Assembly (NCBI GenBank): GCA_050693935.1
Contig: JBOGWU010000277.1
Location: 1,289 to 65,288, forward strand
Source: Actinomycetota bacterium
GTDB lineage: Bacteria > Actinomycetota > CADDZG01 > WHSQ01
Direction: 5' to 3'
Length of the DNA stretch: 64,000 bases
In this document: positions 1,099 to 18,380 of the stretch, piece after piece
How positions within the stretch are numbered: position 1 is the first letter of the stretch
How the letters are laid out: each line of letters starts with the position of its first letter
Position numbers and translations under genes: made by a program
Notes under the pieces: model-generated
What the model was told of the DNA's origin: nothing
The model's database searches: none
What the model saw: only the letters and a program-made list of their open reading frames with translations

Positions 1099-1659
1099 AT
1101 GGCGCCCCTTTCGCCCCCCGATTCGCTGCACGACGGCGTCGTCGCCATCCGCTCGTGGGAGAACTCCGACCTCGATCGGCTGCTCGACCTCTTGGCCGAT
1201 CCCGAGATCCCCCGCTGGACCGGGATCCCGATCCCCTACACTCGCAAGGACGCCAAGGTCTTCTTCAAGTCCAACGCCCGGCAGGAGGCCATGGGCGTAG
1301 GTACCGACTCTGCGATCACCGACGCGGTCGGCGGCAAGTTGCTCGGAGGAGTCGGGCTCAAGCTTCATGTCGTTCACTCGAGCGCCGAGGTTGGCTACTG
1401 GGTGGCTGCCGGGGTTCGCAGGCGCGGAATCGCCTCGCGAGCCCTCAGGCTGATGGCTCGCTGGGCGTTCATGGACCTCGACGTAAAGCGACTCGAGTTG
1501 CTCACCCACGTCGGCAACCACGCCTCCGAGGGCGTGGCGCTCAACTGCGGATTCACGCGCGAGGGGGTGCTTCGCAGTTGCAGGGAGATCAAGGGCGAGC
1601 GCGTCGACCTGACCATCTTCTCGCTGCTGCCGAACGACCTCGACGGCCAGAGCACTTAG
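1099..1659 (+). CDS. GNAT family N-acetyltransferase (RimJ/RimL-like)
   Basis: This is ORF 964..1659 trimmed to the in-frame ATG at 1099 (MAPLSPPDSLHDGVVAIRSW...). The upstream part overlaps the ligA start. It has the acetyl-CoA-binding-type segment VGYWVAAGVRRRGIASRALRLMARWAF. Confidence 0.75.
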   Translation: MAPLSPPDSLHDGVVAIRSWENSDLDRLLDLLADPEIPRWTGIPIPYTRKDAKVFFKSNARQEAMGVGTDSAITDAVGGKLLGGVGLKLHVVHSSAEVGYWVAAGVRRRGIASRALRLMARWAFMDLDVKRLELLTHVGNHASEGVALNCGFTREGVLRSCREIKGERVDLTIFSLLPNDLDGQST

Positions 1660-3135: not shown

Positions 3136-3933
3136 TTAGCGGCCGCGACGCAATGCTCTGATCGGAGTGCCCATCATGTAGATGCCGGAGCGGATCGCCG
3201 AGTTGTACCGGATGTTGCCGGCGTACCGCCACTGACGCTTCTTGTCTACGCACACGATCTGGGTTTCGACCGCCTCCGAGACGCCGAAGTGCTCGGCCAG
3301 GGCGGTGAGCGTGAAGACCCAGAAGCGATCCTCCTTACGGTGACCGCCGAACATGAGTCCGAGCTCGAACAAGGGATCGTTGGCTCGAAGCAGCACGTGC
3401 GCCTGCGCGGTAGTCACGCCGTCGGGACCCTCGAACGCGGAGAAGGTGATGAAGGAGGCGAACATGTGCCCCTCAGGAGTCATGAACGTGAACGACTCGT
3501 CGTCCGCGTACATCACGAGCACGCCGGTCGATAGCGTCAGTTTTCCCGGCATGGCGAGATTTAGCAGCGCGACGTCCCCGGGCGCGATGCCGGTGAGCGG
3601 ACCGTAGAAACGGTTTCCATCCGGCCAGAAGCTGGGGAACTTCGCCTTCCAGGTCGCCACCACTTCCTGCGGCGTCACTCCGGCCCCCGTCATCGGAATC
3701 TTGTAGGTCTTCTGCCACATCTTGCCGAAGCCCTGCATCGGGCTGGTCTGACGGCGACCGGTGACGTTGATGTTGCGGGCCTCGGGGGGAACCTCGCCGA
3801 GGCTCAGTGACTTGGTGGCGCGGGCCCAATAGGCGGCGTCGCGGGCGATCTTCTCCGCGATCTCCTCCGCCGGCTCTGCGGTCTCCTCAGTGGGGGCGGT
3901 CTCGGGAAGTTCCTCTGCAGTCATTTCAACCAC
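3136..3933 (-). CDS. Hypothetical protein, last gene of the partner-switching operon
   Basis: 265-aa ORF with coding-like composition. Its start lies 4 nt after the stop of the STAS gene at 3938. I recognise no family with confidence. Confidence 0.5.
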   Translation of the reverse strand: MVEMTAEELPETAPTEETAEPAEEIAEKIARDAAYWARATKSLSLGEVPPEARNINVTGRRQTSPMQGFGKMWQKTYKIPMTGAGVTPQEVVATWKAKFPSFWPDGNRFYGPLTGIAPGDVALLNLAMPGKLTLSTGVLVMYADDESFTFMTPEGHMFASFITFSAFEGPDGVTTAQAHVLLRANDPLFELGLMFGGHRKEDRFWVFTLTALAEHFGVSEAVETQIVCVDKKRQWRYAGNIRYNSAIRSGIYMMGTPIRALRRGR

Positions 3934-3937
3934 CCGT

Positions 3938-4291
3938 TCACGAGGCGCCGGCGGCGGTTAGCGCGTCGGCCTCGGTGTCGTAGATGCCCACGGCCTCATC
4001 GAGGCGCGTCAGCTCGAATATCTGGCGGTAGTGATCGGTGAGCCCGAATGCGAACAGCCGTTGCTTCTGGCGGTTGGTGCGAACCAGCAGCGTGACCAGG
4101 AGGCCGATGCCCGAACTGTTCATGTATTCGAGGTCGGTGAAGTTCAACAAGATCACCTGGGGCCGGGACTCGTTCGCTTCGGCGAAGGCACTCATGAGCG
4201 CATCATCCGAGGCCGCGGTCACCTCACCCTTGATGTCGATGATCGCGGCGCCTGGTCCTGCGTCACGAACGCCTAGCACTTCGTTCGTCAT
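3938..4291 (-). CDS. STAS-domain anti-sigma-factor antagonist (SpoIIAA/RsbV-like)
   Basis: 117 aa. The motif LNFTDLEYMNSSGIGLLVTL contains the conserved phosphorylatable Ser context (MNSSG). Confidence 0.85.
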   Translation of the reverse strand: MTNEVLGVRDAGPGAAIIDIKGEVTAASDDALMSAFAEANESRPQVILLNFTDLEYMNSSGIGLLVTLLVRTNRQKQRLFAFGLTDHYRQIFELTRLDEAVGIYDTEADALTAAGAS

Positions 4292-4359: not shown

Positions 4360-4713
4360 CTAGGCTTTTGCTGCGAGTCCCTCGACCGCGCCGGCCTCAT
4401 CTCCGTGAATGTCGATGAAGTCCGACAGGCGGGTGATGTCGAAGATCTCCTTGTAGTGATCCATCAGCCCGAAGGCCCTGACCGCCTTGTTGGTTTCGCG
4501 CGCTCGACCGAGCAACCCGACGATCAGCGCTATCCCGGTCGAATTGATGTACGTCGCCTTCGAGAAGTTGAGGACGACCACCGACGCGTCTCCCACCGCA
4601 TCCCAGGCCGCCTGCAATGCCTTCTCGGCGGTTCCGTCGAGCTGACCGGCAAGGTCGATGATCGCGACGTCTCCAGTGTGGCGAACGCTGGCCACGAAGG
4701 CATTAGCGTCCAT
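4360..4713 (-). CDS. STAS-domain anti-sigma-factor antagonist (second copy)
   Basis: 117 aa, LNFSKATYINSTGIALIVGLL. Its start overlaps the stop of the upstream PP2C/kinase gene by 11 nt. Confidence 0.85.
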   Translation of the reverse strand: MDANAFVASVRHTGDVAIIDLAGQLDGTAEKALQAAWDAVGDASVVVLNFSKATYINSTGIALIVGLLGRARETNKAVRAFGLMDHYKEIFDITRLSDFIDIHGDEAGAVEGLAAKA

Positions 4714-6316
4714 GGGCGTCCCCTTTCAGGTGGAAGGTGAGTTCGACGGTGCGAGTGCTGCCATCACTTGTTACGTCCAGATCGTCGACCATGCTCTCGA
4801 TGAGGAACAGCCCCCATCCGCGCGGCTTCTGGCGGCCCTCGAGCTTGGCCTCGAGATTAGGCGCTTCCGGGTGAGCGAGTATTTCCGATCCACCCGTATC
4901 CGTGATCCGCACCCGAAGGTCGCCGCCGGCCACCTCGGCCACGATGCCTACCGGAATCAGCGGATCGTTGTGGTTGCCGTGCTCGATGGCGTTCATGGTT
5001 GCCTCGGCTACCGCGGTCTTGAGTCGTTCGAGCTGAGCGGCAGGCAGGCCGAGATCCACCACCGCGTCGGCAACCATCGCGAGCGCCTTCCGTTCGTTGC
5101 CCGGCTCACTGGGGAGGTCGAATTCGACGAGCACCCCGCTCGTGTTCTGATCCTCCATCGCACCAGCTTGCATCGCGTGCCCGGAGCGCTGCAAGGTCAC
5201 GAGGGTGATGTCGTCCTCTTGGTCCCACGCCGGCCCCACGAACCCGTCCAGGGCTTCCAGCAACTGGTCGATCAGGTCCTCGCCCCCGCGTCCCTCGCCG
5301 ACGATGCCCATCAGGCGGGGAAAACCGAACATCTCGCGCTCGGGGCTGTGAGCCTCGGCCAGGCCATCGGAGTGCATGAGCATGCTGTCCCCCGGCTCGA
5401 GCGTCGCCAGCTTTTCCTCGTAAGACATGTCGGGGAGCAATCCCAGCGGCATGCCCGTGGCGCGCAACTCGATGGTGTCGCCGCCGCTGCCCACGTAGGG
5501 AAGGTTGTGACCCGCATTGGCGAAGCGCAACGTGCCCGCAACCGGATCGAGGACCGCGTAGAGGCAGGTAACGAACATCTTGGGAGGCATGTCATCGACC
5601 AGCAGCGCGTTTACCCGCTCGAGCACCTTTGAGGGTGAGACCAGCCTGGGGGCCTCGGCCCTCAGCAGACTGTGAGTCGTGGCCATGACCAGCGCCGCCG
5701 GGACGCCCTTGTCGGTGACGTCGCCGACGACTATCCCGATCTTGTTGTCGGGGAGCTCGATGAAGTCGTAGAAGTCGCCCCCCACCTCGCGAGCGGGCCG
5801 GTAGTAGGCGGCAACGTGCCATCCCGGAAGGTCGGGGAGGTCGCGCGGCAGAAACTGCTGCTGGATGAGCTGTGCCACCCGCAACTCCTGTTCCACGCGC
5901 TCTCGCTCGCGAGCCTGGCTCTCCTGCTGGCGCACCAGCTGGGCCACGCGCACCGCGGGTGCCGCCTGTCCCGCCAGCGCGTCCAGCAGCTTGCGGTCGT
6001 CGGCGGAGTAGTCCTGTTCGCTGAGCCTAGGCCCGAGATTCAGGAGCCCTACGAGCTCGCCTTGGGTAACCAGCGGAACCACTATCCGAACTCCGGCCTC
6101 GAGGAGCTCCTCGCGTGCCGGCGAGTCCAGATGGAGGGATTCGAGCTCGACGGCGCCGGCCGCGGATTGGAAGTAGGCCAGGATCGGGTCATTGGGCGCG
6201 ATATCGACCGGAGCGACCTCCATGTCCCGGCGCGCAGGGGTGGAGTCGGCGTCGACCCTGACCTGCTCCCGGCGACGCCCTATGAAACGCCTCAACACAC
6301 CCGCTCCGGCACTCAT
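4703..6316 (-). CDS. Fusion protein with a GAF-like N-terminus, a PP2C (SpoIIE/RsbU-type) phosphatase and a C-terminal RsbW-like HATPase anti-sigma kinase domain
   Basis: 537 aa. The PP2C block is GGDFYDFIELPDNKIGIVVGDVTDKGVPAAL...FANAGHNLPY...LMHSDGLAEA...DDITLVTLQR. The C-terminal block is AVAEATMNAIEHGN...RVRITDTGG...GWGLFLIESMVDDLD. The SD aaaggag lies upstream of the ATG at 6314-6316. Confidence 0.85.
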   Translation of the reverse strand: MSAGAGVLRRFIGRRREQVRVDADSTPARRDMEVAPVDIAPNDPILAYFQSAAGAVELESLHLDSPAREELLEAGVRIVVPLVTQGELVGLLNLGPRLSEQDYSADDRKLLDALAGQAAPAVRVAQLVRQQESQARERERVEQELRVAQLIQQQFLPRDLPDLPGWHVAAYYRPAREVGGDFYDFIELPDNKIGIVVGDVTDKGVPAALVMATTHSLLRAEAPRLVSPSKVLERVNALLVDDMPPKMFVTCLYAVLDPVAGTLRFANAGHNLPYVGSGGDTIELRATGMPLGLLPDMSYEEKLATLEPGDSMLMHSDGLAEAHSPEREMFGFPRLMGIVGEGRGGEDLIDQLLEALDGFVGPAWDQEDDITLVTLQRSGHAMQAGAMEDQNTSGVLVEFDLPSEPGNERKALAMVADAVVDLGLPAAQLERLKTAVAEATMNAIEHGNHNDPLIPVGIVAEVAGGDLRVRITDTGGSEILAHPEAPNLEAKLEGRQKPRGWGLFLIESMVDDLDVTSDGSTRTVELTFHLKGDAHGR

Positions 6317-6346
6317 CTCATGCTCCTTTTACGCCCGTTCCGTTCC

Positions 6347-6361
6347 CGAATCGTTACGAGA
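6347..6361. promoter_or_regulatory. 15-nt motif CGAATCGTTACGAGA (palindromic core TCGTTACGA), copy 1, in the divergent intergenic region upstream of the partner-switching operon
   Basis: Identical 15-mer to 15421-15435. It lies 30 nt upstream of the ATG at 6316 on the minus strand. The core is TCGT-N-ACGA. Confidence 0.4.
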
Positions 6362-6505
6362 GCCCGTAGGGGCAAAACTTTCATCTCCGGCAATCCCAGA
6401 CAACCGCCATTAAGAGGCTCAGAGGCGTCACACCCACCGAATAGCCTGATCCTGCCCTGAGCGTCCGCGCCGCTCCGCTTGCCCCTATCGAAGGAGAAGA
6501 CCAAA

Positions 6506-6886
6506 ATGGTGGCAGATGAAAAAGCGCGCGCCGAGTTACAGCGCAGACTCGATGAGATCCTCGGTCCCGAGCCGGCGGCAACCCTGATGGGCGCGCTGCC
6601 CTCGGAGCCTGTGGCGACCAAGGTCACCCTCGATGCCCTCGAAGAGAGGATGAACCTCCGATTCGAGCAAGTCGACCTGCGCTTCGATCTGTTCGACGAG
6701 AAGATGGATCTGCGCTTCGAGCTCTTCGAGAATCGCATTCTCGCGGCTTTGCACGAGGCCATCGGGCTGGTCCGGTCGGATTTCTCGACCCAGTTGATCG
6801 CGCAGACACGCACCTTTGTCTTCGCCACCATCTCCACTCTGATCGCCCTGGCCGCCCTCGGGGTCGCCGCCCTTCGGTTCTCGTAG
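6506..6886 (+). CDS. Small coiled-coil protein with a C-terminal transmembrane anchor
   Basis: This is ORF 6479..6886 trimmed to the ATG at 6506, which sits 8 nt after the SD aaggaga. It has internal repeats MNLRFEQV / DLRFDLFDEK / MDLRFELFENR and a hydrophobic tail FVFATISTLIALAALGVAAL. Confidence 0.5.
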   Translation: MVADEKARAELQRRLDEILGPEPAATLMGALPSEPVATKVTLDALEERMNLRFEQVDLRFDLFDEKMDLRFELFENRILAALHEAIGLVRSDFSTQLIAQTRTFVFATISTLIALAALGVAALRFS

Positions 6887-6899
6887 GCTCTCGCGGCGC

Positions 6900-8117
6900 T
6901 CATCTCGAATCTCCTCCACCGCTCTCGCGAGCTTCGGTGGCCAGCCACAGCGAAGCCTGAGATGGGTTGATGGTCGAGTCGACCACGTTCACGAGGTCTG
7001 TGGTGAGTACCTCGAGGTCCACTTCGCGCCGGAGTCGAGCACCGAAATCGTTGAGGGTGCGTTCGGCATCGTAGCGACTGCGATTGAAGCGCCGGTCGAC
7101 CAGGGATTGCAACCTGGCCTTGAGGGGGCCGAAGGCCGCAATCACGCCGAGGGTCGAGGCGGCCACGATCACGGGCGAGTCCTCGCCGAGCGGAAGCACC
7201 GACTGCAGCGCCAGCACCGCCAGGAGGTAGCCGCCGGCCAGAATGGCGGAGAGCAGTCCGTAGGACACCGTCCGGCTGATGATCCGGTCTATGTCGTACA
7301 GCCGGTACCGGAGGATCGCGATGCCGACCGCCGCGGGAATAGTGAGGAACGCGGCGGTGGAGAGCAGTTGCCTCCAGAACCCGGACACGGGGATGAACGC
7401 GTTAACGATGAAGTCGGCCAGCACCAGAGCGCCGGCCAAGAGCAGCCACTTGATCTGCAGGCGCTCGACCCCGGATGACCTTCGCCACCGGAGAAGCAGC
7501 GACACGACGGAGGCAAGGAATCCAATCGCGATCAAGGCGAGAGAAACCGGTATCAAGACCCCGGCGATGCTCTCCGCGTCGATGGACTCAGGATCGATCA
7601 GCAGGGTCCTCCCCCTGAACTCCCAGGTTGCGATCGCGACCGGCCCCGTGACCAGCAAGCCGGCAACCAGGGGCGGCAACAAGGCCCAGCGCCAGCCTCG
7701 GTGCCAGAACCGGCCCGAGGGGAACAGCAGGAACAGGGGCGGCAGCAGGACGATCGGCCAGATCCAGATCCACTGGTAGAACCAGGCCGCCGCGGCCGCC
7801 CCCGGCAACGACTCGGGATCGACCACTAGGCCGCGAAGCGCGTCCTCCCCGGCGAAGTTGCCGGCGAACCCCACCAGCGGCGCCAGCAGAAACAGCCAGC
7901 CGATCGGATTCTCCGGACGGCGCGCGGTGATCAGGGCTCCGATGACCGGAAAAGCAAGAAACGTGATCCTGTCGATGTAGTCGCCGGCGCGCGAGCCGAA
8001 CTCGCGGGGGAGCTCGGCGGAAGATGACCAGGTCATTAGCGCGAGCGTCATGGCGGTAATGACCACGCCCAAAGCGAACAACGACCAGGCGAGCCTCGCC
8101 GCATTGCGCCGGGTCAC
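6900..8117 (-). CDS. Array paralog 7 (last in transcription order): polytopic membrane protein, sensor-module-like
   Basis: This is the C-terminal 405 codons of the 819-aa ORF 6900..9359. The GTG at 8115-8117 overlaps the stop of paralog 6 (GTGA). Motifs present: ARRPENPIGWLFLL, LLFPSGRFWHRGWRW, LRWRRSSGVERLQIKW, LRYRLYDIDRIISRT, VDRRFNRSRYDAERT, ASLWL. Confidence 0.8.
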   Translation of the reverse strand: MTRRNAARLAWSLFALGVVITAMTLALMTWSSSAELPREFGSRAGDYIDRITFLAFPVIGALITARRPENPIGWLFLLAPLVGFAGNFAGEDALRGLVVDPESLPGAAAAAWFYQWIWIWPIVLLPPLFLLFPSGRFWHRGWRWALLPPLVAGLLVTGPVAIATWEFRGRTLLIDPESIDAESIAGVLIPVSLALIAIGFLASVVSLLLRWRRSSGVERLQIKWLLLAGALVLADFIVNAFIPVSGFWRQLLSTAAFLTIPAAVGIAILRYRLYDIDRIISRTVSYGLLSAILAGGYLLAVLALQSVLPLGEDSPVIVAASTLGVIAAFGPLKARLQSLVDRRFNRSRYDAERTLNDFGARLRREVDLEVLTTDLVNVVDSTINPSQASLWLATEARESGGGDSR

Positions 8118-9359
8118 GGTCTTCCCCCCGAGCCACTCAGCCACAATGAGACGTGAGCCGGTTGCATTGTGGTGCGCACAACGCCGACCAGATCGGACGA
8201 CAGACTGTCGAGGTTGGTCTCCGCTCGCAGCCGTGCCGAGAAGTCGTCGATGGTCCTCGCCGCGTCGTAGCGGCTCCGGTTGAAGCGGCGGTCGACGAAG
8301 CTCTGGACCCTGGCGCGAACAGGTCGGAACAGCGCGACTACAGCGAGAGTCGACGCGGCGACAGTTATCGGTGAATCGTCTGCCACTCGAAGCAGCCTCT
8401 GCAGCGCCAGCACAAGGCCCAGGTAGCCGGCGGCCAGCACTGCAGTCACCACTCCGTAGACGAGCGTGCGATTGATGAGGCGATCGATGTCGTAGAGACC
8501 GTGTCGCACGATGCCTATTCCCTTTGCGACGGGGATGAACGTCAGGCCGAGCATGATCGCCAGGAAGCCGATTAGATCGGCGAGGCTGCCCTTGGGATTT
8601 CCGGCCACCGCAAACAAAACCTGAGCCCCCAATGAAGGCGGCGGCGAAGATCAGCACCGCAAAGACGAACCACCGAATCTGCTGGCGCTCCGAGTGTCCG
8701 GCCCGGCGCCAGCGGACCACCAACGAGGCGATCGCTCCAACCTCGGCGGCCCCGACGGCGACCATAAGCAGTGGATTGTCGGCCAATCCTCGAGCGGCCT
8801 CGATCCCCAACGGGTTAGTCATGCCCTCCACCGCGTCTATCGGTCCGGGCCGCAGCGCGAGCGCCAGGCATAAGGCTCCCAGGCCCAGCCCCGCCAGCCA
8901 CCCCACCCATCTCCAGCGAGGTGAGACCAACCTTCCGGTCGGAAACAGCAGGGTCAAGTACAAGAGAAAGCCGAATCCAGGAACGGCCACCCACAGGGTG
9001 AGCCATCCGAAGAAGGCGGCGAGAGGAAGGGAGCCTGAGCTCTCCACCGACTGGGAGGCATACGCGTCGGCGAACAGGAAGAGGCCGACCAAGAACGAGC
9101 TGCCGAGCATGAGCCAGCCTTCGGGGTTACGGCTCTTTCTAGTAGCGACCAGAGCGCCGGTGCCACCCAAGACCAGCAACCAGCCGTTGACGAGCACGGT
9201 CGCGAAGATCCCGTCCTCGAGGTGCAGGAAGAGCGAGGACAAGAACATGGCCAGCACGAGTCCGATTCCCAAGGATGGGAGCGCCGCGGCCCTGTGGCTG
9301 AGGCCGATCAATGCGCCGCGCTTCTCTATCTCATGGTCGCCGCGTTCGGTTGGAGCCAC
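8114..9359 (-). pseudogene. Array paralog 6, interrupted by a 1-nt frameshift at a C5/G5 run (8626-8630)
   Basis: The N-terminal half (frame of ORF 6900..9359, residues 1 to about 245) ends ...ERQQIRWFVFAVLIFAAAF. The C-terminal half continues in the frame of ORF 8114..8632 (GAQVLFAVAGNPKG...VRHGLYDIDRLINRT...VDRRFNRSRYDAART...AHVSLWL). Deleting one G from cattgggggctc restores a full-length paralog. The start (GTG 9359 or TTG 9311) is uncertain. Confidence 0.8.
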
Positions 9360-10531
9360 AGCGAGACGTGTGCGGGCTGCATGGTGTCACGCACGACTCC
9401 GACCAGATCGGTGGACAGGCTGTCGAGGTTGGTCTCGGCCCGCAAGCGCGCGGAGAAGTCATCGATGGTCCGGATGGCATCGAAGCGCCGGCGGTTGAAC
9501 CTCCGGTCCACCACCGCCTGGATTCGGTTTCTCAGCGGTCGGAACAGGGCGACCATCCCGAGCGTCGAGGCGGCGACGGTCACGGGCGAGTCATCAGACA
9601 CGGGAAGCGCGCCCTGCAGCAACAGAACCGCACCGAGGTAGCCCAATGCGAGCACCGCGCTCAGTCCACCGTAGACAATCGTTCGATTGATGATGCGGTC
9701 GATGTCGTAGAGCCTGTAGCGGAGCATGGCGATTCCGATGGTGATTGGAATCGACGTCACGGCCATGGAGAAGATGCCGTTCACCAGGTTGACCGTCGCA
9801 TCGGTCTCCCCGATGATTGCGAGCACCACCCCCTGCAGCAAGAGGTTAAGAACGACAACCACCCCGGCATAGGAGAACCACTTGAGTTGTTGGCGTTCGA
9901 CCGCGCGCGAGCGCCGGAAGCGCACGATCACAGAGACCACGGAAGCCACCACGCTGAACACGATCAGGACCTCGCCTACCCACAGAGCTACCTGCAGTGG
10001 AATGTCGAGCACCTCGATCCCGTAGGGGTTGGAGATCCTTCCATTGGTGTCCTGGAGCGCGCCCGGTGAAAAGGCGTAAGCGGACACGACCAAGGTCAGA
10101 CCAAGGCCCGTGGTCCAGACCAGCAACCTCCATCGGTGGGACAGGGGACGGCCGGTGGGAAACAGCTGGAGCACGAAGAGCAAGGGAGCAAGGGCGAGCG
10201 ACCAGATGAAGCTCCCCGCCCAGTCGACGAAGTCGCCCTCTGCACCTCGAGGAGTAGCCGGAGTCATCTCTGCATGTGTCGTCAAGAACGCCGCCATCAC
10301 TCCAAAGACTCCGAGCAGGCAGAGAATCCAGCCGATGGGGTTGTCGGAGCGGCGTGACGCAACGAGCCCGCCAACCACTCCACAGCCGATGACGAATATG
10401 CCAAACGGGATGATGTTGATGAGATCCGGCGACCGATCGCGCGTGAGAGAAAAAACGACGACGGCCAGCATTCCGACCAAGATGATGGCGGTCAGTCCCC
10501 ACGCGAGGGAGGCCTTTCCTCGGCCCCTCAT
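9326..10531 (-). CDS. Array paralog 5: polytopic membrane protein, sensor-module-like
   Basis: This is ORF 9326..10555 trimmed to the ATG at 10529-10531, which overlaps the upstream stop (ATGA). Motifs present: SRRSDNPIGWILCL, QLFPTGRPLSHRWRL, RFRRSRAVERQQLKWF, LRYRLYDIDRIINRT, VDRRFNRRRFDA, AHVSLWL. Confidence 0.8.
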   Translation of the reverse strand: MRGRGKASLAWGLTAIILVGMLAVVVFSLTRDRSPDLINIIPFGIFVIGCGVVGGLVASRRSDNPIGWILCLLGVFGVMAAFLTTHAEMTPATPRGAEGDFVDWAGSFIWSLALAPLLFVLQLFPTGRPLSHRWRLLVWTTGLGLTLVVSAYAFSPGALQDTNGRISNPYGIEVLDIPLQVALWVGEVLIVFSVVASVVSVIVRFRRSRAVERQQLKWFSYAGVVVVLNLLLQGVVLAIIGETDATVNLVNGIFSMAVTSIPITIGIAMLRYRLYDIDRIINRTIVYGGLSAVLALGYLGAVLLLQGALPVSDDSPVTVAASTLGMVALFRPLRNRIQAVVDRRFNRRRFDAIRTIDDFSARLRAETNLDSLSTDLVGVVRDTMQPAHVSLWLQPNAATMR

Positions 10532-11727
10532 GCGCTCGTTCCAGGTTTGATCCAAAGCGACAGGTGGGACGGCCGCACCGTGTCGTCCACCACGTTGAGC
10601 AGATCGCTGCTGAGCGCGTCGAGATCGACCTCTTGCCGCAAGCGCTGGCCGAACGATTCGATCGTCAGCGCGGCGTCGTAGCGACTTCGATTGAAGCGGT
10701 GATCCACTGCTGCCTGAACGCGGTTCCGCAAGGGACGGAAGGCGGCGACAACTGCAAGCGTCGACGCCGCCACGATCACGGGGGAGTCGTCCCGGACGGG
10801 AATCATCGACTGAAGCGCGAGCACCGCCAACAAGTAGCCCCCGGCCAGGATCGCGGTCAGCAGACCGTAGGCGAGTGTGCGACTGATCAGACGGTCGATG
10901 TCGTAGAGCCGGTACCGCAGCATGGCAACGCCGATGGTGATCGGAATCGACGTGACCGCGACTGAGAATAGACCTTCAACGACGTCCACCGCGGCGCTGC
11001 TCTCGTCGGCGAAGGAGAAGACCACCATCTGCACCATCAGGCTGCCGACAACCAGCACTCCGGCATAGGAGAACCACTTGAGCTGCTGGTGCTCCACACC
11101 TCTCGATCTTCGGAAGCGAATGACCAGGGAAACGAGAGACATCACGACGCTTGTCGTGATGAGTAACCCGGCCGCCGCGGACATGACCTTCAGCGGCACC
11201 TCGAGGACATCGATGCCATAGGGGTTCGTCGTCCTCGGGTTCGAGTTCGCGAGCGCGCCGGGAGCGAGAGCGGGAGCCAGGACGGCAAAGGCGATACCGA
11301 GGCCGGTTGTCCATACCAAAGCGTTCCACCGGCTCGTCAGGGGTCGCCCGTTAGGAAAAAGCTGAAGCACGAAAATTGCGGGGGCGAAGGCCAGCAACCA
11401 GATGAAGGCGAGGATCCAGTCGACGAAGCGTCCATCGCCACCGGATGTGAGCGGGGCGCGGTCTATGTAAAGCGACGAGAGCGTGGCCAGCATCCCGAAG
11501 AAGCCGACAAGACAAAGTATCCATCCGATCGGATTGACCGAGTGCCGCGAAGCGACGAGTGCCCCGACCACCGCGCACCCGCCGATGAACACCACGAACG
11601 TAACGGTGTTGACGATCTGACCGGATAAACCCCCCTCCGTGAGGTCGAGGACGACGACAAAGAGCGTCCCAACCCCGCTGATCGCGCACAGCGACCACGC
11701 AATTGCGGCAGCTTTTCGAGCGATCAT
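10528..11727 (-). CDS. Array paralog 4: polytopic membrane protein, sensor-module-like
   Basis: This is ORF 10528..11751 trimmed to the ATG at 11725-11727 (ATGA overlap). Motifs present: SRHSVNPIGWILCL, QLFPNGRPLTSRWNA, RFRRSRGVEHQQLKWF, LRYRLYDIDRLISRT, VDHRFNRSRYDAALT, SHLSLWI. Confidence 0.8.
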   Translation of the reverse strand: MIARKAAAIAWSLCAISGVGTLFVVVLDLTEGGLSGQIVNTVTFVVFIGGCAVVGALVASRHSVNPIGWILCLVGFFGMLATLSSLYIDRAPLTSGGDGRFVDWILAFIWLLAFAPAIFVLQLFPNGRPLTSRWNALVWTTGLGIAFAVLAPALAPGALANSNPRTTNPYGIDVLEVPLKVMSAAAGLLITTSVVMSLVSLVIRFRRSRGVEHQQLKWFSYAGVLVVGSLMVQMVVFSFADESSAAVDVVEGLFSVAVTSIPITIGVAMLRYRLYDIDRLISRTLAYGLLTAILAGGYLLAVLALQSMIPVRDDSPVIVAASTLAVVAAFRPLRNRVQAAVDHRFNRSRYDAALTIESFGQRLRQEVDLDALSSDLLNVVDDTVRPSHLSLWIKPGTSA

Positions 11728-12923
11728 CGGTTGACTCCAGGTTTGATCCACAGCGACAAGTGCGCAGGTCGCACGGTCGTATCCACGACCCGCATCAGGT
11801 CTGCCGTCAGGGCCTCGAGATCGACCTCCTCGCGCAGGCGCCGGCCGAAGGACTCGATAGTCAGCGCGGCGTCGTAGCGGCTGCGGTTGAAGCGGCGGTC
11901 CACGATTCGCTGGATGCGAGCGCGTAGAGGGCCGAAGGCCGCGACCACCAGCAGGGTCGATACGGCCACGATCAGCGGCGACTTCTCAGGAAGAGGAAGG
12001 ATCGACTGCAGCACCAGAACCGACAGGAAGTAGCCGCCGACCAGCAGTGAGGTTAGAAGCGCGTACGCGACCGACCTGCTAATGATGCGGTCCACGTCGT
12101 AGAGGCGGTAGCGCAGCACCGCCATCGCGATCGACACGGGAATGCCCATCACCAGAAGCGGGAACAAGAACCCCGGCAACCTCACCAAATCACCGAGCGG
12201 AACCAATACCGCGAAGGCGCTTCCCGCGAGAGCGACCCATTTGAGCTGCTGGCGCTCCTGTGCCGCGGCGCCCCGATATCTGACCACCAGTGACGCCGCA
12301 CTCAGGACGATGGCGACTAGAAGCACCGGCCCCAGCGCGGTGAACACGGTGTCTTCAGTATCGCCGAGGCCGGAGATCCCGATCGGGTTGGGGATCGAGT
12401 AACCCTCGCCCACCAAGCGTTCCTCCACCATCGAGAGAACGGCAGCGAATACCACAAGCGCTCCCGACAGCCATGCCACCGGGCGCCAGCGCGGGGAGGG
12501 AAGTCGTCCGTTCGGAAACAGCAGTAGCAGGAATGTAGGGATGACCATGATCAAGGGGAACCAGGCCCATGCCTCGATCCAAGCAGCCAGCGTCGCCCCG
12601 GGGGTGGCTTCATCTCGGTAAACCAGCCCGTATTGCGCGTAACTCGCCCCCCATATCAGGATCCCGGTCTGGAAGCCCACCCACAACATCAGCCACGCGA
12701 TGAGATTGTCGGGGCGCCGTTGCACGATCAGTGCGCCCATCGCTGGAAACGCGGTGAAGGCTGCCATGAGCAGCAGGTCCTCCAGCCATCCACCATCCGG
12801 TGCCGTGCCGCTTACGCGGTCGAGAATTTCGCTCGTCACCGTCATGCCGATGGTGAACGCGAGCAACACCCAGGCTGCGACTCGAAGGCGGCGCTGGCGC
12901 CGCGTCAGGCTGTCGGTAGTCAT
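11724..12923 (-). CDS. Array paralog 3: polytopic membrane protein, sensor-module-like
   Basis: This is ORF 11724..12947 trimmed to the ATG at 12921-12923 (ATGA overlap). Motifs present: QRRPDNLIAWLMLW, LLFPNGRLPSPRWRP, VRYRGAAAQERQQLKWV, LRYRLYDVDRIISRS, VDRRFNRSRYDAALT, AHLSLWI. Confidence 0.8.
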   Translation of the reverse strand: MTTDSLTRRQRRLRVAAWVLLAFTIGMTVTSEILDRVSGTAPDGGWLEDLLLMAAFTAFPAMGALIVQRRPDNLIAWLMLWVGFQTGILIWGASYAQYGLVYRDEATPGATLAAWIEAWAWFPLIMVIPTFLLLLFPNGRLPSPRWRPVAWLSGALVVFAAVLSMVEERLVGEGYSIPNPIGISGLGDTEDTVFTALGPVLLVAIVLSAASLVVRYRGAAAQERQQLKWVALAGSAFAVLVPLGDLVRLPGFLFPLLVMGIPVSIAMAVLRYRLYDVDRIISRSVAYALLTSLLVGGYFLSVLVLQSILPLPEKSPLIVAVSTLLVVAAFGPLRARIQRIVDRRFNRSRYDAALTIESFGRRLREEVDLEALTADLMRVVDTTVRPAHLSLWIKPGVNR

Positions 12924-14131
12924 GTCTGTCGCTCCGGGCTGATCCACAGCGAGACGTGGGTGGGTGCCATCGTGTGATCCACGACCGCGACCAAGCCGGA
13001 GGCGAGCGCGTCTAGCTCGACTTCGTTTCTGAGCCGCGCTCCGAAACTCTCGATGGTGTGCTCGGCGTCGTAGCGGCTGCGGTTGAAGCGGCGGTCGACC
13101 AGATGTCTGATCCGAGAACGAAGAGGTCCGAACGCGGCGACGACGGCCAGAGTCGACGCGGCCACGATGACCGGAGAATCGTCACGGACGGGAAGCACCG
13201 ATTGCAGTGCCAGCACCGCCACGAGGTAGGCGCCGGCCAGCAGCGCGGTGAGCAGGCCGTAGGCCAGCGTGCGGCTGATGATGCGATCGATGTCGAAGAG
13301 CCGGTAGCGAAGCATCGCAAAGCCCGTGGCAATTGGAAGCAGCAGGACGCCAACGCTTGCGAGCAGTTCGTTACCTGCTCCCTCCGATGAGGACATGGGG
13401 CCCACAACGGTTCCGACCACCGCGACGGCAAGGGCGAACAGGAACCACTTGAGTTGAAGTCGCTCGACCTCACCCGCGCTCCGATAGCGAAACACCAGCG
13501 ATGCGAAGGAGCCGAACAGTGCGGGGATCATGAAGGCATAGGGAAGGTCCCAAAGCACCGCGGCAAGTCCCTCCAACTCCGGAGTCTCATCGAGCAACAT
13601 CGGCCCGCGATATGGCCACGTACCGACTGCCCCGATTAACGTCGCGGCCACTCCGGCGAGCGCGAGTCCTTCCGCTACCCGCCAGCGTCGCGAGGGAAGC
13701 GCTCCGTCGGGAAAGCGAAGCACGGTAATGGCCGTCCACGACATGATCGGGGTCAATACCAAGTGGTAGATGCAGGATGCCGCCGCTCCACCCTGGAGCG
13801 TCCCCGGCTCGACAATGAGAGAGCGCGCCGCGTACTCGTACGCGAAGGTTCCTACCAACCCCGTCAGGCCAACGAGTACGAACAGCCGTGCCACTACGTG
13901 ACCAGGTCTTCGTGACAGGACGGTGAACCCCACAACCACGAAGACGAACTGGGATAGCGAATAGATCGGATCGCTAACATCGAGGTAGTCAGCGATGCCG
14001 GCGAGTTCTTCGGGCCTCATCAGCCCGAACGCCACAGTGATGCCCGCGAGACCCGCGCTCCCAAGCAACGCTAGTGCCCGCACGACGCTCGGCCACGCCG
14101 TGCCCGGTCGCGCCAGCGCCGTCGTCTTCAT
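12920..14131 (-). CDS. Array paralog 2: polytopic membrane protein, sensor-module-like
   Basis: This is ORF 12920..14158 trimmed to the ATG at 14129-14131 (ATGA overlap). Motifs present: SRRPGHVVARLFVL, LRFPDGALPSRRWRV, FRYRSAGEVERLQLKWF, LRYRLFDIDRIISRT, VDRRFNRSRYDAEHT, THVSLWI. Confidence 0.8.
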   Translation of the reverse strand: MKTTALARPGTAWPSVVRALALLGSAGLAGITVAFGLMRPEELAGIADYLDVSDPIYSLSQFVFVVVGFTVLSRRPGHVVARLFVLVGLTGLVGTFAYEYAARSLIVEPGTLQGGAAASCIYHLVLTPIMSWTAITVLRFPDGALPSRRWRVAEGLALAGVAATLIGAVGTWPYRGPMLLDETPELEGLAAVLWDLPYAFMIPALFGSFASLVFRYRSAGEVERLQLKWFLFALAVAVVGTVVGPMSSSEGAGNELLASVGVLLLPIATGFAMLRYRLFDIDRIISRTLAYGLLTALLAGAYLVAVLALQSVLPVRDDSPVIVAASTLAVVAAFGPLRSRIRHLVDRRFNRSRYDAEHTIESFGARLRNEVELDALASGLVAVVDHTMAPTHVSLWISPERQT

Positions 14132-15330
14132 CGAGCCTTCTCCGACGAGCGCAGCCACAACGACGCATGCGCGGGGTTCACCGTGCTGCGCACGACGGCG
14201 ACTAAATCGCTCGAGAGATCGTCGAGGTTCGTCTGCGCGCGGAGGCGAGTGCCGAACTTGTCGATCTCTCGCTCGGCGTCGTAGCGAGTGCGGTTGAATC
14301 GTCTTTCAACCCGCTCGCGGATACGCGCTCGCAAAGGACCGAAGACGGCAACCACGGCGAGAGTCGAGGCGGCAACGATCAGGGGCGAGTCATCCGGAAT
14401 TGGCATCACCGACTGGAGCGCGAGCACCGCGAGTAAGTAACCGCCGGCGAGCACGGCCGTCAGCGCCGAGTACGAGATGGTCCGGCTGACCAGGCGATCG
14501 ATGTCGTACAGGCGGTAACGGAGAATCGCCACGCCCGCGCAGATCGGAGGAGCCGACAACAGGATCGGATCGACGAACGGTAGGCGTCCGCCTGCGACCT
14601 GATCGAGAATTCCCTGCCCGACGAAACCCACCAACATCAGGACACCAGCGAAGGTGAACCATTTGAGCTGCTGGCGCTCCTCACCCCTCGAACGCCGGAA
14701 CCTGGTCACCAGGGCAGTCAGCGACAACACCACGAGCGCCAAGGCCCCGGCAAACAAAACGGCGCCGATGGCGCCCTCCTCTACGTCGCGCAGACCCGGG
14801 ATACCGATGGGGTTGATGAGCACGATCTCGCTTCCGGGAAGCTCGATCTCGGACTCCAGCGCCCCGAGCAGCACGAAGCTTCCCGTCCAGACGATGGTGG
14901 CGCGCCATATCCATGCAAAGCGTCCGGGGAGTGGTCTGCCCGTCGGAAAGACCTGCGGAAGCAGGAAGAGCAAGCTGGCCAGGTAAGCGAGCCAGTACCA
15001 CTCGATCACGCTTGCTAAGAGCCCCGGTGACGGCAGCGACCCCGAGCCGGACGCGAGTTCGTAGCGCGCGTAGGCCTCGACCGCGATCCCCAGCCCCCAG
15101 CTCAGCCCCGCCAAAGTGAAAATCCACCCCACGAGGTGTCCGCCGCGCCGGACCAAAATGATCCCTCCCACCACCACGTTGGGAAGCACCGCCGCCATGT
15201 GGAACATGAGCCCGTTCGCATCGAGTTCGCCCAGTTCAGCGTGCAGAATGAGGGCCGCGATCAAGGCGACCACAGCCACGGTACCGGGAATCAGGCGCGC
15301 CTTCATCGGCGCGCTTTCTGGCCTGCTCAT
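14128..15330 (-). CDS. Array paralog 1 (first in transcription order): polytopic membrane protein, sensor-module-like
   Basis: 400-aa ORF starting at the ATG at 15328-15330 (alternative ATG at 15306). Motifs present: VRRGGHLVGWIFTL, QVFPTGRPLPGRF, TRFRRSRGEERQQLKWF, LRYRLYDIDRLVSRT, VERRFNRTRYDAERE, AHASLWL. Confidence 0.8.
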   Translation of the reverse strand: MSRPESAPMKARLIPGTVAVVALIAALILHAELGELDANGLMFHMAAVLPNVVVGGIILVRRGGHLVGWIFTLAGLSWGLGIAVEAYARYELASGSGSLPSPGLLASVIEWYWLAYLASLLFLLPQVFPTGRPLPGRFAWIWRATIVWTGSFVLLGALESEIELPGSEIVLINPIGIPGLRDVEEGAIGAVLFAGALALVVLSLTALVTRFRRSRGEERQQLKWFTFAGVLMLVGFVGQGILDQVAGGRLPFVDPILLSAPPICAGVAILRYRLYDIDRLVSRTISYSALTAVLAGGYLLAVLALQSVMPIPDDSPLIVAASTLAVVAVFGPLRARIRERVERRFNRTRYDAEREIDKFGTRLRAQTNLDDLSSDLVAVVRSTVNPAHASLWLRSSEKAR

Positions 15331-15420
15331 CGCTCCGGGCCGGCGCTATCGGTTGTCTGGATCACGCTTGCCCCCGTGATTACTCCGCTCTACGGCCCCA
15401 CTCTCTACACCTAACGTCTG

Positions 15421-15435
15421 CGAATCGTTACGAGA
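15421..15435. promoter_or_regulatory. 15-nt motif CGAATCGTTACGAGA, copy 2, in the divergent intergenic region between array paralog 1 and the SARP-type regulator
   Basis: Identical to 6347-6361 and in the same orientation. It lies 90 nt upstream of the ATG at 15330 (minus strand) and 72 nt upstream of the TTG at 15507 (plus strand). Confidence 0.4.
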
Positions 15436-15506: not shown

Positions 15507-18380
15507 TTGTCCGACTTACGACTATTTCTGCTCGGTGCTCCTGGCATCGAACGAGACGGAAGCCCCGTCGACCTCGACACGCGCAAGGCCATCGCGCTCG
15601 TCGCCTACCTGGCGATAGAGGGACAGACCTTCCGCAGAGACTCCCTGGCCGGGCTCCTGTGGCCGGAGCACGGCGGAGATCAGGCGCGCGGCGCGCTCCG
15701 GCGCACCTTGTCGACGCTCAAGAAGGGAATGGGGGGCGAGGGGGTCGAGGCCGACCGAGCCACCGTCGGCCTCACCAGCGACGCCGTTTGGACGGACGCG
15801 ACGGAGTTCCGTCGGTTAATCGAACAGAGCCAGGTCCCCTTCGCGGAAGGCGACCCGGATGCGTGCTTGGCCCTGTTAGAGCGCGCCATCCAGTTGTATC
15901 GAGGCGATTTCATGGCGGGGTTCTCGCTGCGAGACAGCGTGGACTTCGAGGACTGGCAGTACTTTCAATCCGAATCCCATCGACGGCTCATGACCGGCGC
16001 GCTGGAGCGAGCCGTTGAGTGCCTGACGATGCGCGGTCGCTTTGCGGAGGCCATCGATCGCGCTCGCCGCTGGTTATCGCTAGATTCCCTGCACGAACCG
16101 GCGCACCGCAAGCTCATGGCGTTGTATGCGTGGAACGACCAGCGCGCCAGCGCACTCAAGCAGTATCGAGAGTGCGTCGGATTACTCGATCGCGAGCTGG
16201 GTGTCCCCCCACTCGAAGAGACCACCGAGCTCTACCGGCAGATCACCGACAATCGACTCCCGGAGCCCGAGCTCCTCTCGTTGCCGCAAGAGCTCGGCTC
16301 GGTGGAGCTCGCCGGCGTGCACGCGCCCACACCTACACCACTGGTAGGTCGAACGACCGAGCTTGCGCTCCTGCTAAACGCCTACGAGTCGGTGGGCGCG
16401 GCCGGACGAGTCGCGCTCATCGAGGGCGAGGCCGGTATCGGCAAGAGCCGACTCGCCGACGAGTTCCTCGCACGGTTGCACGAGCGCGGTTCGATGACAG
16501 CAACCGTCCGCTGCCACGCAGAGGAGACTCACCTCGCCTTCGGGGTAGTCACCGGACTCCTTCGCCAGACACTCGAGGAGAAGGGAAGGGAGTGGCTTGG
16601 GGTCGTGCCCGTGCACTGGCTGAGCGAGTGTGCCCGGCTGTTGCCCGAGCTGCTGACTCTCGGCATCGACGTCCCTCCTCCCACGCGGCTGGACGACCCC
16701 GGCGCCCAGGCTCGCTTCTTCGAGGGCATAGCCAGCTTCTTGACCTCGGCGAGTAACGGGCCTCAGCGGGGAGTGCTGCTCGTCGACGATCTGCACTGGA
16801 CGGACGAATCCTCGCTGGACGCGCTCCTCTACCTTGCAGGCCGCCTCAGGGGACGGCCCCTGCTCTTGCTCGGGACCTTTCGTTCCGACGAGGTCGGAGC
16901 GTCGGCGCGTGTCCGCCGGTTGGCGACCGCGGCCGGCCAGTATTCGATAGACAACATCGAGCTCCGGCGTTTGACCCGCGACGAGGTGTCCGAGCTGGTC
17001 ACCGCCGCCCGTCCCGGCGACGCGACCTTGAGCGACCGTCTCTACGAGGAGACCGAGGGACTTCCGTTCTTCCTCGTCGAGTACCTGGCGGCGCTCGACG
17101 AGGGTGCCGATCCCGAGTCGCCGCAATGGTCACCCCCGTCGGGTGTGCGCGAGCTCCTGTCGTCGCGCGTCGAGCAGCTGAACGAAACGGCGCGACAGGT
17201 GCTCACGACCGCCGCCGTTATCGGACGGAGCTTCGACTTCGACACGGTGCGCGAGGCGGGTGGTCGCTCGGATGACGAGACCGTCACCTCTCTCGACGAC
17301 CTCGCCGCCGCGGGCCTGATCAAAGAGGTGGCGCCGGCCGGGAAGGGGTTCCCCACCTTCGACTTCAGCCACGAGGGGATCCGCCGTCTCGTCTACGACG
17401 ACGCAAGCAGCGCCCGCCGAAGGTTGCTACATAGGCGCGTGGCGGACTCGCTGGCGCGCTCCCGACGGCGCCCGGCGGTGGAGCCGGGGGCAGTCGCCCA
17501 TCACTACGAACTCGCCGGCAACGATGCCGCCGCCGCGCGCTACTACGAGCTTTCGGGGCGCAAGGCCAGTTCGTTGTTCGCGCACGCCGAGGCAATGGCC
17601 CACTTTCGCACCGCGCTTGCGCTCGGACATCCCGAGCCCGCCCGCATTCACGAGGCCCTTGCCGACATTCAGACCTTCTCCGGCGACTACTCGGGTGCGC
17701 TGATCGAATATGAGACCGCCGCGGCGTTGAGCGACCAGCACGATCTGGTAACGATCGAGCACAAGATCGGAACCGTGCACCATCGAAGAGGAGATCTCGA
17801 CTCCGCTCGCAGCCACTTCGAAGGTGCCCTGGAGCTTCTCGACGACGACGACCACGCGCGGCGATCGCGCGTGTTCTCCGACCTCAGCCTCACGGCTCAT
17901 CGCTCGGGAGAGTCCGCCACCCCGGAGCTTCTGGCGAACGAGGCCTTGGGCCTTGCCGAAAAGACCGAGGACATCAACGCGCTGGCACAGGCACACAACA
18001 TCCTTGGCATCCTGGCCAAGAGCCGGGGCGATGTGGACAGCGCGCTCGAGCACCTTCAGCAGAGCGCCGATCTGGCCAGCGATCTCAGCGACCCGACGGC
18101 TCGTATTGCGGCGCTCAACAACCTCGCACTGGCCCGGGGAGAGGCCGGTGAACGCGACGCGGCCATCGAGATCCTGAACGAGGCACTCAAACTCTGCACC
18201 GAGCAGCAGGACCGTCATCGCGAGGCCGCGTTGCATAACAACCTGGCGGACCTCTTTCATCGCAACGGAGAGCGCGAGCGCTCGATGGAACACCTCAAGC
18301 AAGCGGTTGCGATCTTCGCCGAGATCGGTTCGAAGGAGTCGACCATGCAGCCCGAGATCTGGAAGCTGGTCGAATGGTAG
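15507..18380 (+). CDS. SARP/AfsR-type regulator with an OmpR-like winged helix, a BTAD domain, a P-loop NTPase and TPR repeats
   Basis: 957 aa with a TTG start 5 nt after the SD gagggga. The N-terminal wHTH is LFLLGAPGIERDGSPVDLDTRKAIALVAYLA. The BTAD block is LYRGDFMAGFSLRD...HRKLMALYAWNDQRASALKQYRECVGLLDRELGVPP. The Walker A motif is IEGEAGIGKSRL. The C-terminus has TPR-like repeats (NILGILAKSRGDVDSALEHLQQS...). Confidence 0.85.
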   Translation: MSDLRLFLLGAPGIERDGSPVDLDTRKAIALVAYLAIEGQTFRRDSLAGLLWPEHGGDQARGALRRTLSTLKKGMGGEGVEADRATVGLTSDAVWTDATEFRRLIEQSQVPFAEGDPDACLALLERAIQLYRGDFMAGFSLRDSVDFEDWQYFQSESHRRLMTGALERAVECLTMRGRFAEAIDRARRWLSLDSLHEPAHRKLMALYAWNDQRASALKQYRECVGLLDRELGVPPLEETTELYRQITDNRLPEPELLSLPQELGSVELAGVHAPTPTPLVGRTTELALLLNAYESVGAAGRVALIEGEAGIGKSRLADEFLARLHERGSMTATVRCHAEETHLAFGVVTGLLRQTLEEKGREWLGVVPVHWLSECARLLPELLTLGIDVPPPTRLDDPGAQARFFEGIASFLTSASNGPQRGVLLVDDLHWTDESSLDALLYLAGRLRGRPLLLLGTFRSDEVGASARVRRLATAAGQYSIDNIELRRLTRDEVSELVTAARPGDATLSDRLYEETEGLPFFLVEYLAALDEGADPESPQWSPPSGVRELLSSRVEQLNETARQVLTTAAVIGRSFDFDTVREAGGRSDDETVTSLDDLAAAGLIKEVAPAGKGFPTFDFSHEGIRRLVYDDASSARRRLLHRRVADSLARSRRRPAVEPGAVAHHYELAGNDAAAARYYELSGRKASSLFAHAEAMAHFRTALALGHPEPARIHEALADIQTFSGDYSGALIEYETAAALSDQHDLVTIEHKIGTVHHRRGDLDSARSHFEGALELLDDDDHARRSRVFSDLSLTAHRSGESATPELLANEALGLAEKTEDINALAQAHNILGILAKSRGDVDSALEHLQQSADLASDLSDPTARIAALNNLALARGEAGERDAAIEILNEALKLCTEQQDRHREAALHNNLADLFHRNGERERSMEHLKQAVAIFAEIGSKESTMQPEIWKLVEW

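Follow-up and report, generated by a model that had tools for sequence, protein, structure and literature searches.

Seven tandem genes for ten-helix membrane proteins as candidate detached sensors of a GAF-PP2C-kinase effector in an actinobacterial contig

The stretch of DNA analysed here (called the window; 64,000 nt, positions 1,289 to 65,288 of the forward strand of contig JBOGWU010000277.1, assembly GCA_050693935.1, Actinomycetota bacterium) contains at positions 6900-15330 an array of seven paralogous membrane-protein genes, all on the minus strand, which fill this region. Six of the seven are intact and encode proteins of 399-405 amino acids (aa), and one is frameshifted. The gene starts were placed at the 4-nt ATGA or GTGA overlaps with the preceding stop codon, and with this setting the open reading frame (ORF) calls confirmed the seven paralogs and the lengths given for them in an earlier note on this DNA. 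The order of transcription is g1 (14128-15330, 400 aa), g2 (12920-14131, 403 aa), g3 (11724-12923, 399 aa), g4 (10528-11727, 399 aa), g5 (9326-10531, 401 aa), g6 (8114-9359, about 415 codons) and g7 (6900-8117, 405 aa, identical to protein P0121). The start codon overlaps the preceding stop at five junctions, as ATGA at g1/g2, g2/g3, g3/g4 and g4/g5, and as GTGA, with a GTG start, at g6/g7. Such 4-nt overlaps argue for a polycistronic, translationally coupled message running from g1 to g7. Simple terminator and promoter scans detected nothing above background inside the array. The paralogs are referred to below as sensors, after the role favoured for them.

The g6 gene is probably a pseudogene, because its single frameshift, at or near a run of five G residues (approximately 8632-8640), recurs in a near-identical public contig, its coupled ATGA start has been lost and its LRYRLYDID motif has decayed to VRHGLYDID. 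This independent public contig (L001; GCA_975305665.1) differs from the window by 7 mismatches in 14.6 kb and has the seven genes and the g6 frameshift alike. Alternatively, the lesion may be a homopolymer sequencing error common to both contigs. At the DNA level the array is a repeat of seven copies that recurs every 1196-1215 nt, the copies being 60-74 % identical in the 3' third; this cannot be chance. No eighth copy of the sensor family was found elsewhere in the 64-kb window.

Hydropathy analysis gave approximately ten transmembrane (TM) segments per paralog. The basic loops (LFPxGRxxSxRW, RxRRSxGxERQQLKW and LRYRLYDIDRxIxR) and the C-terminal tail of about 65 aa fall on one common side of the membrane, presumably the cytoplasmic one. 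The polytopic architecture with a cytoplasmic tail, as described in the earlier note, is therefore borne out, and all the motifs quoted there were seen in the alignment of the paralogs.

The view that the proteins belong to no characterised family also held. No Pfam or NCBIfam model scored above its cut-off, no significant match to transporter or enzyme families was found in these two collections, and no description of the family, of the array or of the split GAF domain discussed below was met in the literature searched, which left out most subscription journals. PADLOC returned nothing for the sensors and a generic TPR match as its sole hit in the locus, so an anti-phage defence system was rejected. 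The weak similarities point to the N-terminal regions of histidine kinases. The HisKA_7TM model (PF16927) matched g7 (E 7e-5, 23.2 bits against a gathering threshold of 28.6) and no other paralog, and only 1 of 62 family members matched it at E 0.01 or better; the PrsK model (TIGR02916) matched g1 (E 1.7e-9, 36.8 bits against a cut-off of 300 bits) over positions 60-349, i.e. the N-terminal membrane region and the start of GAF. A histidine-kinase core (HisKA, HATPase_c) is attached to none of the paralogs, and their fused relatives bear PP2C domains. The structural search suggested earlier was made with an AlphaFold2 model of one fused relative, P0123 (overall predicted local distance difference test score, pLDDT, 82.5; helical bundle above 90 across most of residues 1-280), and no PDB entry reached E 0.001 in the Foldseek comparison.

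The family is very large. A word-indexed search with g4 returned more than 4,000 matches, nearly all of about 400 aa, unnamed and mainly from metagenome-assembled genomes (MAGs) of soil Actinomycetota. An exhaustive search with P0123 gave 36,864 cluster representatives with E <=1e-3, of which 6,804 had E <=1e-30; these totals include matches to the GAF part alone. Orthologs of single paralogs with 89-96 % identity occur in other samples. Four database proteins of 880-1070 aa (P0242, P0272, P0314 and P0345) have two or three segments that match the sensor module; they may be sensors fused to one another in tandem, or the gene calling may have merged neighbouring genes.

The two ends of the paralogs have evolved very differently. 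Pairwise identity upstream of LRYRLYDID is 24-32 %, with the exception of g4 and g5 (56 %; g4 is the closest paralog of g5, at 58-59 % identity), which look like a recent pair, and it rises to 53-75 % in the C-terminal third. Nei-Gojobori estimates gave a synonymous divergence (dS) of 0.8-2, saturated in all three segments, and a non-synonymous divergence (dN) of 0.7-1.0 in the N-terminal part, 0.14-0.39 in the segment of TM9-10 and 0.17-0.52 in the tail, with dN/dS of 0.1-0.3 in the conserved part. Since dS is saturated everywhere, the C-terminal conservation reflects long-term purifying selection on the protein and not recent gene conversion, and the paralogs are old; gene conversion was rejected also for want of long identical tracts. 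The contrast between diverged N-terminal and conserved C-terminal parts, read previously as diversified input with a common output surface, was thus reproduced in both identity and the per-domain dN, and that reading gained further support from the fusions described below, in which the conserved C-terminus is the piece joined to a GAF-PP2C effector.

Downstream of the array, on the same strand, lies a single effector gene (4703-6316, 537 aa). Its product carries a partial GAF domain, a SpoIIE/PP2C phosphatase domain (PF07228, E 1.4e-49) and, on the same polypeptide, a HATPase_c_2 domain (PF13581, E 3.7e-21) of the RsbW-like serine kinase type; the matches to the spIIAB and RsbW models were weak and below the cut-offs. 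The N-terminus aligned to the GAF models (PF01590 / PF13492) at profile positions 69-127 of 129 only. Two genes for STAS proteins follow on the minus strand. The first (4360-4713), of the anti-sigma-factor-antagonist type, is the presumed substrate of the effector and is kept in nearly all related loci; the second occupies 3938-4291. They scored 51.0 and 57.5 bits, respectively, against TIGR00377 (cut-off 53.45). Of the parts of a partner-switching system, a PP2C phosphatase, an RsbW-type kinase and two single-domain STAS proteins are therefore present.

The relation between the sensors and the effector became apparent from natural fusions, in which the complete GAF domain that neither the effector nor a sensor tail possesses by itself is present on one chain. 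P0212 has the architecture 7TM-GAF-PAS-SpoIIE, P0218, P0237 and P0303 are 7TM-GAF-SpoIIE proteins, and P0299 (947 aa) and P0313 are 7TM-GAF-SpoIIE-HATPase_c_2 proteins; P0299 corresponds, colinearly, to a window sensor joined to the window effector. A chimeric query made of the C-terminal third of g7 and residues 45-190 of the effector aligned with the natural fusions P0123, P0132 and P0139 in one high-scoring segment pair covering 91-100 % of the query at 48-50 % identity. True fusions have a linker of 16-30 aa between the SLWL motif and IAPxDP. Sensors and effector are hence the halves of a protein that in relatives is a single chain, with the break within GAF, and constraint is strongest on that portion of the sensor which lies next to the effector in the fusions.

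The position of the break can be read from the Pfam GAF model, which aligned end to end (profile 1-132/133) and above threshold in the fusions P0123, P0212, P0237 and P0303, for example at residues 380-511 of P0123 (profile 1-132/133, 35.4 bits) and 408-547 of P0237 (profile 1-133). The domain starts about 22 residues before SLWL, within the segment homologous to the paralog tails. Because the GAF model of the fusions starts inside this segment, each paralog, g1 included, ends after the first helix (a1) and first strand (b1) of GAF, and the effector carries the remainder of the domain. The tail sequence, DLxxLxxDLxxVVxxTxxPxHxSLWL, has the form of a canonical GAF N-terminus, helix a1 followed by strand b1. 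This is the element that the earlier note, correct about the paralog array itself, had missed. The paralog tails alone matched no GAF model.

Comparisons at the level of structure were compatible with this position of the break, but weak. A profile of fused tail-plus-GAF segments retrieved only GAF domains from the PDB, and several of the alignments, with weak E-values, ran from the tail to the C-terminal helix (e.g. 3eea_A, 6-159 of 162). In the P0123 model the tail forms a helix (381-396) and a strand (401-403) that precede the remaining strands, and Foldseek aligned this model weakly with the GAF protein 3oov_A (164 aa; 170 columns, TM-score 0.52 normalised to the target, E 0.012). When the fused tail-GAF segment was used as query, the protein matches were for the most part short pieces of split effectors. 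Two further database proteins, P0136 (locus L002) and P0122, were dropped from the set of fusions as ORFs running through the intergenic element, L002 with assembly frameshifts. L002 (ENA contig_2473, 1.7 Mb, positions 9100-12100) has a single sensor copy and several frameshifts across the sensor and the effector, which are probably errors of a long-read assembly or signs of a decaying locus.

The same cassette was found in many related genomes. Forty-four effector-anchored loci from Actinomycetota and Chloroflexota MAGs were scanned using a profile built from the seven paralogs together with the neighbour genes of the window; sensors were counted upstream of the effector, on the same strand and within the sequence stretch covered for each locus. 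The recurrent order comprises a divergent gene for a SARP-like regulator (BTAD-AAA_16-TPR), 0 to at least 8 sensors, the effector, two STAS genes, one or two genes for a protein of about 265 aa and a CrtI/CrtO-like oxidoreductase gene. The SARP gene and the STAS/PP2C operon, named in the earlier note as neighbours whose conservation should be surveyed, are therefore partners of the array in other genomes as well. At least one sensor gene is present in approximately 34 of the 44 loci, nearly always directly upstream of the effector and on the same strand, and at least 13 of these sensor-bearing loci have from 2 to at least 8 copies. At least 8 copies were counted in L015, 7 in L004, at least 6 in L042, 4-5 in L005, 4 each in L025 and L028, 3-4 in L039, 3 each in L018 and L021, at least 3 in L003 and 2 each in L011, L013, L029 and L030; several further loci have one copy. 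Two more loci, on a 3.6-Mb and a 0.53-Mb contig, were reached independently by way of sensor proteins; they contain 7 and 8 sensors with 4-nt overlaps in the identical cassette. The array of the window is thus one member of a recurrent class of variable copy number, neither a one-off nor unique to this genome.

The sensor repertoires differ even between close loci. The effector, the STAS proteins, the 265-aa protein, the oxidoreductase and a GNAT gene of the window are 89-97 % identical to those of L003, whereas the best sensor matches between the two loci reach 40-68 %; in L004, whose effector is 83 % identical, only two or three of the sensors have recognisable orthologs (69 % and 57 %). From the gap between sensors and cassette neighbours it follows that gain, loss and replacement of sensors are frequent and that the repertoires turn over much faster than the effector.

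The junctions between the last sensor and the effector may bear a further trace of the fused state. The two genes are in the same frame at about 14 of 21 junctions, against one third expected by chance, and in about eight loci a single stop codon separates the two ORFs (junctions noted: L003, L011, L016, L018, L026, L028, L039 and L045). This in-frame arrangement probably reflects the ancestral fusion. Stop-codon read-through or a programmed fusion was judged unlikely, since the junctions hold the effector ATG, a Shine-Dalgarno sequence and an upstream element, and often several stops; in the actinobacterial loci the sequence 'TAAAAGGAG' downstream of the element is probably the Shine-Dalgarno sequence.

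The upstream element occurs twice in the window, both times on the minus strand. One copy, with the direct repeats CGTAACG-ATTC-GCAGACG, lies upstream of g1 at 15410-15432 (CGTAACG at 15426-15432), and the second, CGTAACG-ATTC-GGGAACG, at 6326-6358 (CGTAACG at 6352-6358), about 45 nt upstream of the effector ATG. The consensus is CGTAACG-N4/5-(C/G)G(G/T)AACG with a period of 11-12 nt, and many Chloroflexota loci have three repeats. A copy about 45 nt upstream of the effector ATG was found in nearly all loci, and the other copy, located between the SARP gene and the first sensor at about 70 nt from the SARP start, in most related loci. In the window the divergent regulator gene (BTAD, AAA_16, TPR), conserved beside the cassette, is located at 15507-18380 on the plus strand. 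SARP-dependent promoters contain direct heptamer repeats spaced by one helical turn (11-nt period) by the -10 element, near the SARP gene. The CGTAACG element is therefore proposed as a candidate SARP box, promoter or operator, and because such heptamer-type repeats beside a SARP gene resemble SARP-dependent promoters, it is plausible that the divergent SARP-like regulator controls both the array and the effector.

Between the array and the effector a small lineage-specific gene was found on the plus strand (6479-6886), encoding a 135-aa protein with a coiled coil and a C-terminal TM helix and without a family match. In L005 and in L004, a locus with two copies, homologs occupy the corresponding position; L015 and L042 have a different, SRPBCC-like gene there, and in L003 the junction is about 15 nt long and without a gene. 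A minus-strand ORF at 6313-6903, with ATGA overlaps at both ends, was considered as well and is probably non-coding, given the conserved protein on the opposite strand with its homologs in L004 and L005.

Taken together, these observations favour the explanation that the seven paralogs are interchangeable input (sensor) subunits of a partner-switching-type cassette and act through their conserved tail, to which a probability of approximately 0.6 was assigned. The proposed history starts with a 7TM-GAF-PP2C(-kinase) gene that would have undergone fission inside GAF, after which the sensor half would have been amplified in tandem and have diversified. Each sensor consists of a domain of about ten TM helices, a linker helix on the cytoplasmic side (DRRFNRSRYDA...) and the a1 and b1 elements of GAF, and the sensors would be co-translated from one polycistronic mRNA. 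The conserved tail of each would serve for docking on the effector, in the simplest case by contributing the a1/b1 elements that the effector GAF lacks; the effector would thereby be held at the membrane, and the conformation of the 10-TM domain would be relayed to the PP2C/kinase pair. The latter would set the phosphorylation state of the two STAS proteins, so that many membrane or extracytoplasmic inputs would converge on one output. The 265-aa protein, the oxidoreductase and the SARP-like regulator are candidate targets of the STAS proteins. Physical docking, complementation of GAF, the sensing of signals and a downstream STAS target are what we infer from the gene arrangement and the fusions. 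The stricter version, in which the split GAF works as a plug-in and the sensors, competing or alternating, each donate the first helix and strand to one phosphatase/kinase, is proposed with more doubt than belief. In the GAF fold b1 is an inner strand of the sheet, and a domain without b1 should be incomplete.

Several results weigh against this explanation or parts of it. The spacer between g7 and the effector is 580 nt long and contains the opposite-strand gene, and the effector has its own upstream element, so that the array and the effector are probably separate transcripts in the window. A chimera of the window tail and the effector N-terminus neither extended nor raised the Pfam GAF match. 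AlphaFold2 modelling of the tail-plus-GAF segment of the fusions alone, based on an alignment of 8 sequences, gave a pLDDT of 50.9, and the GAF part of the P0123 model (residues 400-490) has a pLDDT of about 40-75, i.e. moderate confidence. About 10 effector loci with the same truncated GAF have no sensor gene in the covered stretch, and in 4-5 of them 5-10 kb of upstream flank is covered; the effector may therefore not strictly depend on a sensor, or the sensors may lie elsewhere in those genomes. Finally, no gene for a sigma-factor or anti-sigma target was found in the conserved cassette, in the window or in the related loci.

Some of these results would be expected if the sensors were coupled to the effector by other means than completion of GAF, the tail being an autonomous helical output or dimerisation element. 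The short GAF-like domain of the effector would then fold by itself, and the coupling would proceed via another surface, via hetero-oligomers of sensors or by co-regulation only. The unimproved match of the chimera and the loci without sensors fit such an arrangement, as does the modelled GAF region of P0123, which is compact with only about four strands at moderate confidence, and the invariant DRRFxRxxYDA helix, which precedes the GAF start, could be a signalling element in itself. Against it, the GAF models require the tail segment for end-to-end alignment in the fusions, the tail sequence fits the canonical GAF N-terminus, and the loss of the internal strand b1 should leave the effector domain incomplete. 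This alternative is considered unlikely, yet it is the strongest of the rivals.

It is very improbable that the 400-aa proteins have an activity of their own, as transporters, enzymes or scaffolds, and merely share the operon neighbourhood. No known signalling domain was detected in the paralogs and there are thousands of stand-alone members of about 400 aa, which speaks for this possibility. On the other hand, the natural fusions link the module to GAF-PP2C, GAF-PAS-PP2C and GAF-PP2C-kinase proteins, its synteny with the effector is strict across two phyla, and the searches gave no transporter or enzyme family and no solved structure at E 0.001 or better, only the weak matches to the N-terminal sensor parts of histidine kinases.

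Still less credence was given to the idea that the array stores silent cassettes for switching at the DNA level or for translational fusion, one sensor at a time being joined to the effector gene by homologous recombination in the 3' third or by read-through. The conserved 3' third common to the copies, the many loci with the last sensor and the effector in frame, sometimes with one stop between, and the two database ORFs reading through the intergenic region (P0122 and P0136) could be taken as signs of it. However, the conserved third is only 60-74 % identical in DNA, without long identical tracts and with saturated dS, the copies have start codons of their own, placed in overlaps for translational coupling, and in essentially all loci a conserved ATG, a Shine-Dalgarno sequence and the upstream element belong to the effector itself, with several multi-stop junctions. 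The window in addition has the 580-nt spacer with the opposite-strand gene, and the cassette contains no recombinase gene. The least probable explanation, that the array consists of decaying duplication remnants without function, accounts for the frameshift and lost coupled start of g6 but conflicts with the six intact genes of seven, the dN/dS of 0.1-0.3 in the conserved part, the recurrence of arrays of 6-8 intact genes in other genomes and the orthologs of single paralogs at 89-96 % identity in other samples.

The remaining genes of the cassette are located further downstream on the minus strand. The gene at 3136-3933 encodes the protein of 265 aa (p265), whose function is unassigned and which has no family match; it is present in 1-2 copies in related loci, the duplication being seen in some Chloroflexota loci. 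The conserved gene at 1656-3083 encodes an FAD oxidoreductase of the CrtI/CrtO type, with scores below the family cut-offs. Both p265 and the CrtI-like oxidoreductase, whose genes close the cassette in the two phyla, may be its regulated output. The G+C content of the window is 63-68 %. Two plus-strand segments far from the cassette, 37924-41447 and 59901-61793, show a strong AT skew of opposite sign, which corresponds to T-rich membrane-protein genes that are not members of the sensor family.

Signal input to PP2C partner-switching pathways is poorly understood beyond a few model organisms. The cassette puts input and output in separate genes and multiplies the input, and so offers a natural system for the study of multi-signal integration by one phosphatase and allows a test of whether a regulatory domain is completed in trans by alternative partners. 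If such completion takes place, it would be a new principle for the wiring of bacterial signalling and a scaffold for synthetic sensors: a modular architecture of many inputs and one output, built by fragment complementation and conserved in Actinomycetota and Chloroflexota. The explanation favoured here also gives a concrete, testable role to a very large family of 'hypothetical proteins', found mostly in soil metagenomes. That the sensors change quickly while the effector is conserved suggests an adaptation to cues, chemical or physical, of the local environment.

The components of the cassette are of already known kinds: PP2C phosphatase, RsbW-like kinase, STAS proteins, GAF domain and a multi-TM input region. 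Undescribed in the literature searched are a membrane input that a break within GAF has separated from its effector, the amplification of this input to tandem arrays of up to at least 8 fast-turnover paralogs, and the placement of the array beside a SARP-like regulator in a cassette shared by two phyla. Among the closest known systems are the membrane GAF/PAS-PP2C phosphatases of the RsbU/SpoIIE type, including the uncharacterised fusions P0299, P0218 and P0212, which have the same domain set as the two proteins of the window combined and whose N-terminal halves are clearly homologous to the window sensors; in the window, by contrast, the sensor is a separate polypeptide cut inside GAF and is present in seven diverged copies per effector. 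Multi-TM input preceding GAF is known also from PrsK-type kinases, and the TM region of the paralogs is weakly similar to HisKA_7TM (PF16927) and the PrsK N-terminus, but the paralogs are below the curated cut-offs and without a histidine-kinase domain.

In Pseudomonas, HsbR/HsbA is a pair in which a bifunctional PP2C and kinase regulator acts on a STAS protein. A regulator combining PP2C and an RsbW-like kinase acts on a STAS protein also in Vibrio fischeri SypE/SypA (PMC8256260, PMC10120452). The window cassette resembles both in having the phosphatase and the HATPase_c_2 kinase on one protein with single-domain STAS genes adjoining, and since the locus has no sigma factor, a STAS protein is probably its output. 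The input is different: SypE and HsbR have a receiver domain fed by a phosphorelay, whereas the window effector has a truncated GAF and detached membrane modules. In Chlamydia trachomatis, RsbU is a phosphatase with a sensor domain in a system with two STAS proteins, RsbV1 and RsbV2 (PMC8256260); its sensor part is described as a periplasmic ligand-binding domain, in contrast to the 10-TM bundle of the window sensors. A parallel to the multiplied input is provided by the stressosome of Bacillus subtilis with its RsbR paralogs RsbRA-RD (PMC9765535, PMC11821858), in which, as proposed for the array, several paralogs that vary in their N-terminal sensing parts but have a conserved C-terminal part act on a single downstream PP2C pathway. 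The two are not homologous. RsbR proteins are soluble, have a complete STAS domain, assemble into a 1.8-MDa complex and are not encoded in a tandem array, whereas the conserved part of the window paralogs consists of two TM helices and a fragment of GAF.

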